In this document: piece after piece, positions 39,689 to 54,280 of the stretch
Numbering within the stretch: position 1 is the stretch's first letter
How the letters are laid out: each line of letters starts with the position of its first letter
IMG/VR virus record: IMGVR_UViG_3300037493_001906
Coordinates: 54,099 to 118,098 of that record
Length of the DNA stretch: 64,000 nt
From: a virus
Direction: 5' to 3' (one strand)
The notes under the pieces: model-generated
The model's database searches: none
What the model saw: the letters and a program-made list of their open reading frames with translations, nothing else
Told to the model about the DNA's origin: nothing
Translations under genes and position numbers: made by a program

Positions 39689-39880
39689 ATGCACAAATCA
39701 TTTTTAATTCAAAGACTTTCTGATGGATTATTTTATAACCTTAATGGGCAATGGGATAAAAGAATTATAGGATTAACTTCTAGTTTTGTTTCTAAAGAAG
39801 ATGCATTATCCTATTTAGAAAACATTTATGAAATAAATCAAGACTATACAATAGTTGAAATTTATTATTCTTTTAAGTAA
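39689..39880 (+). CDS. Hypothetical protein; likely start 39689 (MHKSF)
   Basis: ORF track, trimmed. Confidence 0.55.
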   Translation: MHKSFLIQRLSDGLFYNLNGQWDKRIIGLTSSFVSKEDALSYLENIYEINQDYTIVEIYYSFK

Positions 39881-40211
39881 CAACTTTGAGTTCAGGGAAG
39901 ATAACTTCAAACCTGAACTTATTATCTAGAATTCTAGTTATTACTCACAGGTAAAACCTGTACAGATATACAGGCCCTATACTAGATAGGTTATACAATC
40001 TAATATGTAACTTCAATTGACAACGGCCTCAGTACGTGGAGTTCCTTAAGTCCAGCCAAGGTGTAATCAGGAATGATTGCTAGGGTCAGACTCCACCAGT
40101 TATTCTCAAACACTGCCACAAACTTAAACTTTATCATTACCTAATAAGAGAATAGGGATAAAGTTATTATATTTATAGAGTCTTGGGTTTCTTGATAGGG
40201 TTCCCAAGGCT

Positions 40212-40396
40212 CTATTCTCTTTGCACACTCATTAGTGAGCAGTTGTAATATGGGTAGTAGCAATGTGTCTACGTAATAGAACCTGTAACTTGCATAATAG
40301 CTCTACACTTCACTTTAGAGATTTAGGTAATCCATTAATTGGAATCCTGAAGTGTGTATCTATCAAGTAGTATTACAATTGAGTGCAGAGGGGTAG
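40212..40396 (+). ncRNA. Structured RNA motif, copy 1 (three-way junction)
   Basis: GTGAGCAGTTGTAATA (40235-40250) ... TATTACAATTGAGTGCAGAGGG (40371-40392); closing stem CTCTTTGCAC/GTGCAGAGG. Confidence 0.6.
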
Positions 40397-40481
40397 TCCA
40401 AATTTAACTGATTATTAGACTTTAAATATTAGAATCAGTCCTTGAGAGTGGTGGTTTGTAGAAATACAATAAACTCTTATT

Positions 40482-40760
40482 TAATGCACCACAACTCACG
40501 TGGATATAAAGACTTCTTATAAAATATCGTACAGTTTGAATCTGTAGATTGGGCCCAACGCAGGGATTTAAGATGTGAAACCACAATGATTAAGAAACAG
40601 AAACAATACAAGTAATTCTTGTTGGACACACAGAAACATTTAATCATTCTCCCAAGGGTGAGCAGTTGTAATAACTACAGAGCCACTGTATCATGAAAAC
40701 CTTTTATTTAGGGATACAACCTACTGACAATAGATTATTACAACTGAGTGCAGAGGGTAT
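40482..40760 (+). ncRNA. Structured RNA motif, copy 2 (twister-like blocks)
   Basis: Identical 16-nt 5' core at 40658-40673 and 3' core at 40736-40757 (21/22 identical to copy 1); different insert. Confidence 0.55.
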
Positions 40761-40829
40761 TTAATTATTAAGCTCATAAAGATTGTATTTAAACTTATAA
40801 TAAATTAAACAATTTAAAACCAACTCAAA

Positions 40830-40961
40830 ATGGAAACACTCACTGTATTATTAGTAGCCACACTATGTACCATTGGTATGTTTGCTCTGGCAATAGGACT
40901 TGTAACATTAGCAATCAAGTTAGACACTTTTATTTATAACTACTTAAACAACTCAAAATGA
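40830..40961 (+). CDS. 43-aa membrane peptide
   Basis: METLTVLLVATLCTIGMFALAIGLVTLAIKLDTFIYNYLNNSK*. Confidence 0.55.
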   Translation: METLTVLLVATLCTIGMFALAIGLVTLAIKLDTFIYNYLNNSK

Positions 40962-41182
40962 AATCAACTCTTATTATGCTATCCTTTATTGGTAGTTTCC
41001 TAGCAACTTGGTTGATACTAGGATTTATAGTTTATATGGTATCATATATAGACTATGTAGAATGTCTACGTCATACAGGTGTATTACTAGCAATGTTCTT
41101 TGTTGGTTGGGTACCTGCCATATTTGTAGCATATGATGTAGAAGAACTATTGAAGAATAAACAATCTCAATCTAATGGGTAA
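40958..41182 (+). CDS. 2-TM membrane protein
   Basis: ORF track; hydrophobic. Confidence 0.6.
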   Translation: MKSTLIMLSFIGSFLATWLILGFIVYMVSYIDYVECLRHTGVLLAMFFVGWVPAIFVAYDVEELLKNKQSQSNG

Positions 41183-42388: not shown

Positions 42389-42457
42389 TAGCCAAGTAGC
42401 ATACTTACTTATGTGATACTGTAAAAATGTGGGTTTGATTCCCACCTTGGCTACAAA
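42389..42457 (+). tRNA. Truncated tRNA-like element (Tyr-like CTGTAAA loop sequence, no anticodon stem)
   Basis: TAGCCAAG/CTTGGCTA acceptor; GTGGG-TTTGATT-CCCAC T arm. Confidence 0.5.
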
Positions 42458-53952: not shown

Positions 53953-54280
53953 GTGGTACAGGAACAATCATCTTGTAAAATTCTTCACTTGATAATTCCT
54001 TTTCTTCTGCTTTACCTTCTTTTTTAGCAGTCTTCTCCATAGCATCTACTAGTCCAACAAGAATAAATATTGTTTCTTCTTGTTGAGTATTACTTGCTTG
54101 ATTGGTTTTCATTTTCTCTAAGATATTAATGAATTCATTATTACCAATAGATTCACCATAAGTCATTAGAAGTATTTGACATCTTCTAAGGAAGTATCCA
54201 GATACCTCTATGTTAAACAAAGTATCCATTGAAATAATAGGCACTTTATATTTTTCTGGTTGTTCTGTATTTTGCTCCAT
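53939..54280 (-). CDS. Isolated minus-strand hypothetical protein
   Basis: TATATTTGC element 2 nt upstream of the ATG. Confidence 0.6.
   Translation of the reverse strand: MEQNTEQPEKYKVPIISMDTLFNIEVSGYFLRRCQILLMTYGESIGNNEFINILEKMKTNQASNTQQEETIFILVGLVDAMEKTAKKEGKAEEKELSSEEFYKMIVPVPPSGS

Follow-up and report, generated by a model that had tools for sequence, protein, structure and literature searches.

A predicted complete twister ribozyme and a nested, probably non-cleaving relative from an Rfam-uncatalogued subfamily in a crAss-like phage

Twister is among the best-studied small ribozymes, and its catalogue rests on Rfam-type models. The class was defined by Roth et al. (2014), has been reviewed in detail (PMC5408937) and has been tested at scale (PMC11662667). 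At the structural level, P1, P2 and P4 are the essential stems and two pseudoknots link the L4 loop to L1 (PMC5408937, PMC11662667). The adenine at the cleavage site is conserved, and the U that precedes it is less so (PMC5408937, PMC11662667). Large-scale testing has also defined which parts of the fold are negotiable: P1 is dispensable, and both imperfections at location 1 of L4 and long auxiliary stems are tolerated, while the residues needed for catalysis are A1, A2, the general-base G and the partners of the T1 and T2 pseudoknots (PMC11662667). When L2 carries additional stems, P3 is found on its 5' side and P5 on its 3' side (PMC11662667).

The locus described here was found in a 64,000-nt stretch of viral DNA (the window; positions 54,099 to 118,098 of IMG/VR record IMGVR_UViG_3300037493_001906), and all coordinates below refer to this stretch. 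The source record is a virus of 118 kb with about 32% G+C. It encodes a terminase with 25% identity to its counterparts in crAss-like phages of Bacteroides, Flavobacterium and Cellulophaga, as well as a portal and a major head protein recognised by PHROG families so annotated, and the phage is taken to be a distant crAss-like lake phage. Two related RNA units, copy 1 (40217-40393) and copy 2 (40482-40757), both on the plus strand, are found within a 950-nt ORF-free gap (39881-40829) of the plus-strand early or replication arm; a divergent switch lies some 3 kb away, at around 37.3 kb. It is likely that they represent two members of a phage-specific twister subfamily that Rfam has not catalogued, copy 2 being complete and copy 1 a derivative that would not cleave.

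The presence of a repeat at this locus had been noticed in an initial annotation, which described a twice-repeated structured RNA with an invariant core. The repeats are indeed found at the positions given there: the 5' block GTGAGCAGTTGTAATA occurs at 40235 and 40658 and the 3' block TATTACAAYTGAGTGCAGAGGG at 40371 and 40736, with no further match to either block at three or fewer mismatches in the window and nothing resembling them elsewhere in the window or in the phage genome. These blocks are far above chance (two matches of the 3' block were obtained in none of 100 shuffles), and each is present in exact form in more than 120 IMG/VR contigs at the least. The 11-bp stem CAGTTGTAATA/TATTACAAYTG that the annotation had drawn was also recovered, surrounding 120 nt in one copy and 62 nt in the other, with mutually unrelated interiors.

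Copy 2 has, on present evidence, a complete type-P1 twister architecture with two large extra arms. The predicted cleavage site, which is the only one in the window, is located between U40482 (N-1) and A40483, the general-acid A, followed by A40484 (A2), at the family consensus position (40482-40484). It is followed by the 5' strand of P2, UGCAC, and by C40490 (40485-40490), the T2 partner of G40656. The 5' strand of P4 (CUCAC, 40495-40499) leads into a conserved 150-nt domain made of two arms (40500-40649) that is inserted at the first position of L4, at its 5' end, and the L4 core U-CCC-AA-GG (40650-40657) then provides the 5' strand of T1 (CCC) together with G40656 for T2. P4 is closed by GUGAG (40658-40662), pairing 40495-99 with 40658-62, and continues into the 84-nt P5 arm (40663-40746), which consists of a 12-bp base and a unique interior of 60 nt. 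The unit ends (40747-40757) with the junction A40747, the 3' strand of P2 (GUGCA, pairing 40485-89 with 40748-52), G40753-A at the general-base position and GGG, the 3' strand of T1 (40755-57). No base pair of P1 is formed in the twister register of this copy. The complete twister is obtained only by joining TAATGCACC, whose position at 40482 was confirmed by direct sequence check, to TCCCAAGG at 40650 across the 150-nt insertion. With that junction, the twister reading originally offered for both copies stands for copy 2; it fails for copy 1, which has neither the A-A nor an L4. In the initial annotation TCCCAAGG preceded both copies, at 40202 and 40650. Both positions are correct, and only the second has an L4 context. 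The first occurrence falls within a separate 11-bp hairpin 25 nt upstream of copy 1, AGAGUCUUGGG/CCCAAGGCUCU (40177-40213; 40177-40187 with 40203-40213), recognised by direct sequence reading. Since it forms the 3' strand of this other hairpin and not a loop, it was rejected as an L4 for copy 1. The assignment of the variable hairpin was also considered with respect to the described auxiliary stems: P3 was rejected because this stem sits on the 5' side of L2 (PMC11662667), and the hairpin corresponds to P5, on the 3' side.

The domain inserted in L4 is itself structured and conserved. Its first arm is built from an outer stem, GUGG/CCAC (40500-03 with 40581-84), an invariant internal loop, AUAUAAAG/GAAA, and an inner stem, ACUUCUU/AAGAUGU (40512-18 with 40570-76), whereas the second arm is formed by AAUGAUUAA/UUAAUCAUU (40585-93 with 40640-48). 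The 5' motif of the domain was found in 54 viral contigs (the complete IMG/VR listing), directly 3' of a twister 5' half and followed by the L4 core; a recognisable 5' half is absent in 2 of the 54. Units that carry such a conserved two-arm domain of 70-250 nt at the position of the extra L4 nucleotide are referred to as class 2. Among the 48 parsed units with the domain, GUGG-AUAURAAG-ACUUCUU...AAGAUGU-GAAA-CCAC is invariant, the extension of the inner stem and the second arm (NUGAUUAA/UUAAUCAN) covary, and the covariation of P4 spans the entire insertion. To our knowledge, a large domain inside the L4 of a twister has no described precedent. The domain might impede T1 formation, and it may also act as a regulator of cleavage.

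Copy 1 is best described as a structural, recurrent and presumably non-catalytic derivative folded as a three-way junction, termed class 3. The annotation had mentioned a simple three-way junction as one option for this copy, and it turns out to be its sole consistent fold. At its 5' end, the strand CUCUUUGCAC (40217-40226) occupies the place of the U-AA cleavage site and forms a nested closing helix with GUGCAGAGGG (40383-92), all ten positions being paired, two of them as G.U. A short P4-like hairpin of 4 bp, CUCA-UUAG-UGAG (40228-40239), carries no L4 motif, and the P5 arm (40240-40381) combines the conserved 11-bp base with a unique interior of 120 nt, followed by the junction A and GUGCAGAGGG(G), the 3' strand of the closing helix (40382-40393). 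The UGCAC of copy 1 is preceded by CUCUU, without N-AA, and its GGG pairs with the nested CUC, so that A1/A2, the L4 loop and T1 are all missing, while P2 and the base of P5 are retained together with the junction A. Copy 1 would therefore be unable to cleave as a twister, since L1 and T1 are zipped into a continuous helix of 10-11 bp and a short hairpin stands in for L4. At least 11 class-3 units were collected. Their closing helix is 91.7% paired in a set chosen for at least 9 of 10 closing-helix pairs, and shows compensatory changes at three pairs, the 5' strand tracking changes in the 3' tail (GAGAA, GAGAG, AAGAA). Several of these relatives cap the P4-like hairpin with GNRA or UUCG tetraloops. 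There is thus evidence, drawn from these comparisons, that the nested copies would be structured elements and not merely decayed ones.

Other elements accompany the two copies. The spacer between them (40394-40481) contains two hairpins and is 85-92% identical in five other loci (L030, L087, L239, L227 and L233), with compensatory changes at 5 of 21 predicted pairs. The second hairpin (40445-40449 with 40473-40477) covaries, resembles the P0 of twisters and ends 4 nt before the predicted cleavage site. On the downstream side, two overlapping small ORFs of 43 and 74 aa (40830-41182, plus strand) start 72 nt after the ribozyme and encode strongly hydrophobic products that are probably small membrane proteins. 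Within the same gap and upstream of copy 1, a further non-coding element (39934-39995, core ...GGUAAAACUUGUACUGAUAUACAGGUAAUCCUAUACUAGAUAGGUU) is conserved at 79-84% identity in at least 8 other phage loci; its predicted hairpin retains a UA-to-CG compensatory change and it has no Rfam match. Positions 40017-40163, also in this gap, are 90% identical to 11567-11712 of L098. Further downstream, Rfam reports a tRNA of 64 nt at 42390-42453 (36.5 bits for a gathering score of 29). ARAGORN predicts none in the whole window, and the element may represent a phage tRNA that is truncated or atypical.

Comparison with relatives allowed the 5' extension of the repeat into UAAUGCACC–linker–P4–UUCCCAAGG–P4'–long arm–A–GUGCA–GA–GGG, the full unit being N-AA-UGCAC-C-(3-4 nt)-P4-UUCCCAAGG-P4'-CAGUUGUAAUA(variable)UAUUACAACUG-A-GUGCA-GA-GGG. 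Twister type P1 (RF03160) presents the same order, namely P1, N/AA, P2, T2, P4, L4 (U-CCC-AA-GN), P4', P5, P2', GA, T1' and P1', and the extended unit has both the element order and the key bases of this type. A parser that required pairing in P2, P4 and P5 (at least 4 of 5 pairs in P2 and P4) returned 115 distinct class-1 units. The N-1 position is U in 112 of them, C in two and A in one; the cleavage-site AA is fixed by the selection of the parser and shows no variation in alignment A1. All 115 units have the junction A, 111 have GA (the general-base G plus A) and 99 have UUCCCAAGG as L4. With an author-built covariance model, the two window copies are the only ones detected in the genome (53.3 and 42.1 bits). 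Altogether the family is a large, phage-specific twister subfamily, missed by the Rfam models and numbering at least several hundred copies in phages: among 185,579 prokaryote species genomes, carriers were restricted to six short MAG contigs, and no blastn match was obtained in GenBank phages.

The genomic arrangement of the family is consistent across loci. The next ORF is small and co-oriented with the unit in 140 of 151 cases (93%), at a median distance of 138 nt. This co-orientation, together with the G.U pairs present in P1, P2, P4 and P5, indicates a strand-specific RNA. No particular gene seems to be served, since the 140 downstream proteins fall into 92 clusters, and an association with a downstream gene family was rejected. 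An association with tRNAs was discarded as well (ARAGORN predicts a tRNA within 1 kb for only 9 of 168 units), and so was a fixed copy number: five near-complete genomes have one strict match each, yet tandem copies are present in 25% of loci. Two or more units, in groups of two or three and sometimes back to back, are found on 28 of 111 strands. Such tandem arrays of two or three units were seen in L100 (minus strand), L137 and L194; the three back-to-back units of L100 place their cleavage sites 194 and 145 nt apart, and self-cleavage would therefore excise unit-length RNAs. The release of small RNAs by tandem units is thus conceivable in these relatives. In 23 of 166 units the cleavage site adjoins a terminator-like hairpin with a U tract, compared with 9 of 498 control windows. 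Self-cleaving ribozymes are known to cluster, and the finding of a Hatchet ribozyme (RF02678, 79.3 bits) at 6387-6553 of L009, about 1.1 kb upstream of two units and on the same strand, fits this behaviour. Mosaic exchange is apparent in comparisons involving L030 and L110: identity is about 92% in flanks or single arms, with no relation in core class or in the interiors of the arms. Some units depart from the consensus. L221 and L223 are truncated and have no P5 after P4', downstream of the L4 core; in both, CCCAAGGG can pair with the downstream CCCUUGGG, giving an alternative hairpin that sequesters the T1 strand. The 3' flanks of L008, L062, L080 and L120 share a recurring motif, AUUUGGAGG...GCUCCCAAGCAGGU, holding a second CCCAAGC that resembles a canonical twister L4.

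The proposed fold was evaluated by a formal pair count on a MAFFT alignment of 83 sequences with the pseudoknots written in. Paired cells amounted to 92.7%, compared with 84.1% in shuffles, and the covariation score was 0.281 versus 0.121, a value reached by none of 500 shuffles; slid registers were only 29-49% paired. P2 and P4 are 100% paired and P5 96.2%, percentages that are partly circular because the parser demanded pairing in these stems; the types of compensatory change and the results on T1 and P1 are unaffected by this circularity. Compensatory changes occur at three of the five P2 pairs, the class-1 variants being UGCAU/AUGCA, UGUAC/GUACA, UGCGU/ACGCA and UGUGU/ACACA, and two further combinations (CACAC/GUGUG and UGCGC/GCGCA) come from class-2 units ascertained independently with an unrelated anchor. 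In P4 all five pairs are compensatory, with 20 pair combinations. The T1 pseudoknot, which played no part in unit selection, is paired in 98.8% of cells: CCC/GGG is present in 97 of the 115 units and is replaced in a compensatory manner by CCA/UGG in six, CAC/GUG in four and CCU/AGG in one. The UGCA/UGCA and CCC/GGG complementarities originally pointed out for P2 and T1 are supported by compensatory changes among relatives. Of the CC/GG pairing suggested for T2, a single pair is seen. This C:G pair is found in 83 of 83 sequences and, being invariant, cannot covary, and the second pair is ambiguous: the N position (C to U) covaries with the G located 5' of P2' (G to A); with the final G of L4 it shows no covariation, and AAGA variants of L4 are uncompensated. 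The second T2 pair appears to have been replaced by a fifth pair of P2. P1 is weak throughout the family but significant. In the exact twister register it averages 2.59 consecutive base pairs, versus 1.39 with shuffled partners (maximum 1.73) and lower values in other registers; 65.5% of its cells are paired and all five pairs covary. Read in this way, P1 would be genuine across the family but short, as published work allows.

Of the checks that the initial annotation had proposed, the collection of homologues with a covariation test gave many relatives with covarying P2, P4, P5 and T1, and Infernal against Rfam gave no match to twister models. Neither at the gathering threshold nor at E≤10 does any twister model match in the window, in L045 or in L063; RF03160, RF03154 and RF02684 have no match at this threshold in the window region or in short-P5 units, and RF03160 and RF02684 have none in the phage genome. 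In 11 further loci no unit is called at the Rfam gathering score. More generally, no Rfam family, including twister-sister, hammerhead, pistol, hatchet and tRNA, is detected on 39800-40900 at E≤10; weak rows for RAGATH-17, c-di-GMP-I-UAU and ROOL were dismissed as chance-level, and a hammerhead core (CUGANGA...GAAA) checked by eye did not fit. The suggestion that these repeats could constitute a new ncRNA class is not upheld: they are better described as members of a known ribozyme class, forming an expanded subfamily that is uncatalogued.

The simplest reading of these observations would be that early transcripts are processed autonomously. Sequence features, covariation, distribution of the family and orientation on the gene strand are directly observed; both cleavage itself and its effect on the mRNAs are what we infer from sequence comparison. 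In this scheme, the double pseudoknot of copy 2 would fold during transcription of the early region and the RNA would cut itself between U40482 and A40483. The upstream RNA, containing copy 1 and the P0-like hairpin, would be left with a 2',3'-cyclic phosphate, and the downstream mRNA for the two small membrane proteins would begin with a 5'-OH, on a leader that is compact and structured. The cut at copy 2 would require no host nuclease.

A different possibility is that the relevant product is the P5 arm, so that the scaffold would present or release this hypervariable arm as a functional small RNA (a regulator or a decoy) and self-cleavage, or host RNase III acting on class 3, would only trim its ends. 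P5 interiors are nearly all unique (115 units give 105 clusters), some interiors are retained on cores with a different P4, T1 or P2, and mosaic cores are found on conserved flanks. In the same direction, at least 11 class-3 units, with stable tetraloops and covariation in the closing helix, lack the catalytic features and preserve P2, the P5 base and the junction A, and tandem arrays such as that of L100 would excise RNAs of unit length. However, no shared motif was found among the P5 interiors, which are only mildly structured (mean z of -1.05); those of the window, searched together with the L4 domain, have no antisense target in the phage genome (best match of 13 nt), no exact 21-22-mer of the window interiors occurs elsewhere in IMG/VR, and the auxiliary P5 is highly variable in ordinary twisters too. 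This reading is considered unlikely. A more elaborate form of it, which we regard as distinctly unlikely, would make the twister core a self-processing display scaffold whose P5 cargo RNA is exchanged through recombination at the fixed 11-bp base and released by tandem self-cleavage or, in the nested form, by a host nuclease, with the L4 domain possibly gating cleavage through some factor. Sequence is almost invariant in P2, at the junction A and over the first 8-11 bp of P5, and class 3 retains these parts. Such conservation exceeds catalytic need and hints at some further or different role, and the scaffold or its P5 arm may have a second function.

The same excess of conservation in P2 and in the P5 base, along with the failure of the Rfam twister models, the missing P1 and the large, unprecedented L4 insertion, could also mean that copy 2 adopts a twister fold that is non-catalytic in vivo and serves as a structured 5' leader or protein-binding element controlling the small genes downstream. 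Against this stands the conservation of every residue described as necessary for catalysis (A1, A2, the general-base G and the T1 and T2 partners; PMC11662667), and T1 is preserved by compensatory change, a costly upkeep which argues that the pseudoknotted active fold matters; a purely structural role for copy 2 is therefore judged very unlikely. An explanation at the DNA level, in which the repeat would be a miniature inverted-repeat mobile element (MITE) or a recombination site with the 11-bp stem as terminal inverted repeats, might account for perfectly inverted arms around unrelated interiors and for mosaic exchange on conserved flanks. It is hardly compatible with a conservation that reaches asymmetrically past the inverted repeat, with helices retaining G.U pairs that are A.C mismatches on the other strand, with the covariation of a long-range pseudoknot or with the co-orientation of 93% of the units with downstream genes, and no target-site duplication was seen. 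It was rejected as scarcely credible. Self-processing by a twister-type fold thus remains the favoured interpretation of copy 2.

What the family would add to the twister class is a conserved structured domain within the catalytic loop L4, a P5 base that is fixed in sequence around an interior nearly unique to each phage, and recurrent derivatives in which plain helices replace the pseudoknotted active site. It constitutes a natural series in which the tolerance of the twister fold, a possible regulation of cleavage by the L4 domain and the selective forces beyond cutting could be followed. Its fixed setting helps in this respect: a crAss-like early region, on the gene strand, upstream of small genes and sometimes after a terminator-like hairpin. 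The family still belongs to a ribozyme class that is already known, and clustering of ribozymes has been described for such a setting.

With twisters of the RF03160 type, the family shares a 3-bp T1 pseudoknot and a conserved T2 C:G pair, the cleavage-site A, a G at the general-base position, a dispensable P1, a hypervariable auxiliary P5 and an optional upstream hairpin (P0). It differs from them in having one extra 5' nucleotide (U) in L4, or an inserted domain there, in a P2 and a P5 base of nearly fixed sequence, in the apparent replacement of the second T2 pair by a fifth P2 pair, in escaping every Rfam twister model and in including nested derivatives that would be non-catalytic. Type-P5 twisters (RF02684) are similarly found between small phage early genes, on the gene strand and sometimes in tandem, where they are presumed to process mRNA without a host nuclease; unlike them, the present family is open at P1 and not at P5, and its units are of about 275 nt instead of about 60.

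A functional parallel exists in phage T7, where RNase III sites between the early genes cut a long early transcript. Both systems would consist of structured intercistronic elements at which a long early transcript is cut (as predicted here) to leave ends protected by hairpins. It may be speculated that only the class-3 form, whose closing helix stacks on P5 over some 22 bp, resembles a double-stranded RNase III substrate. In contrast to the T7 sites, cutting at the elements described here is presumed to be autocatalytic.
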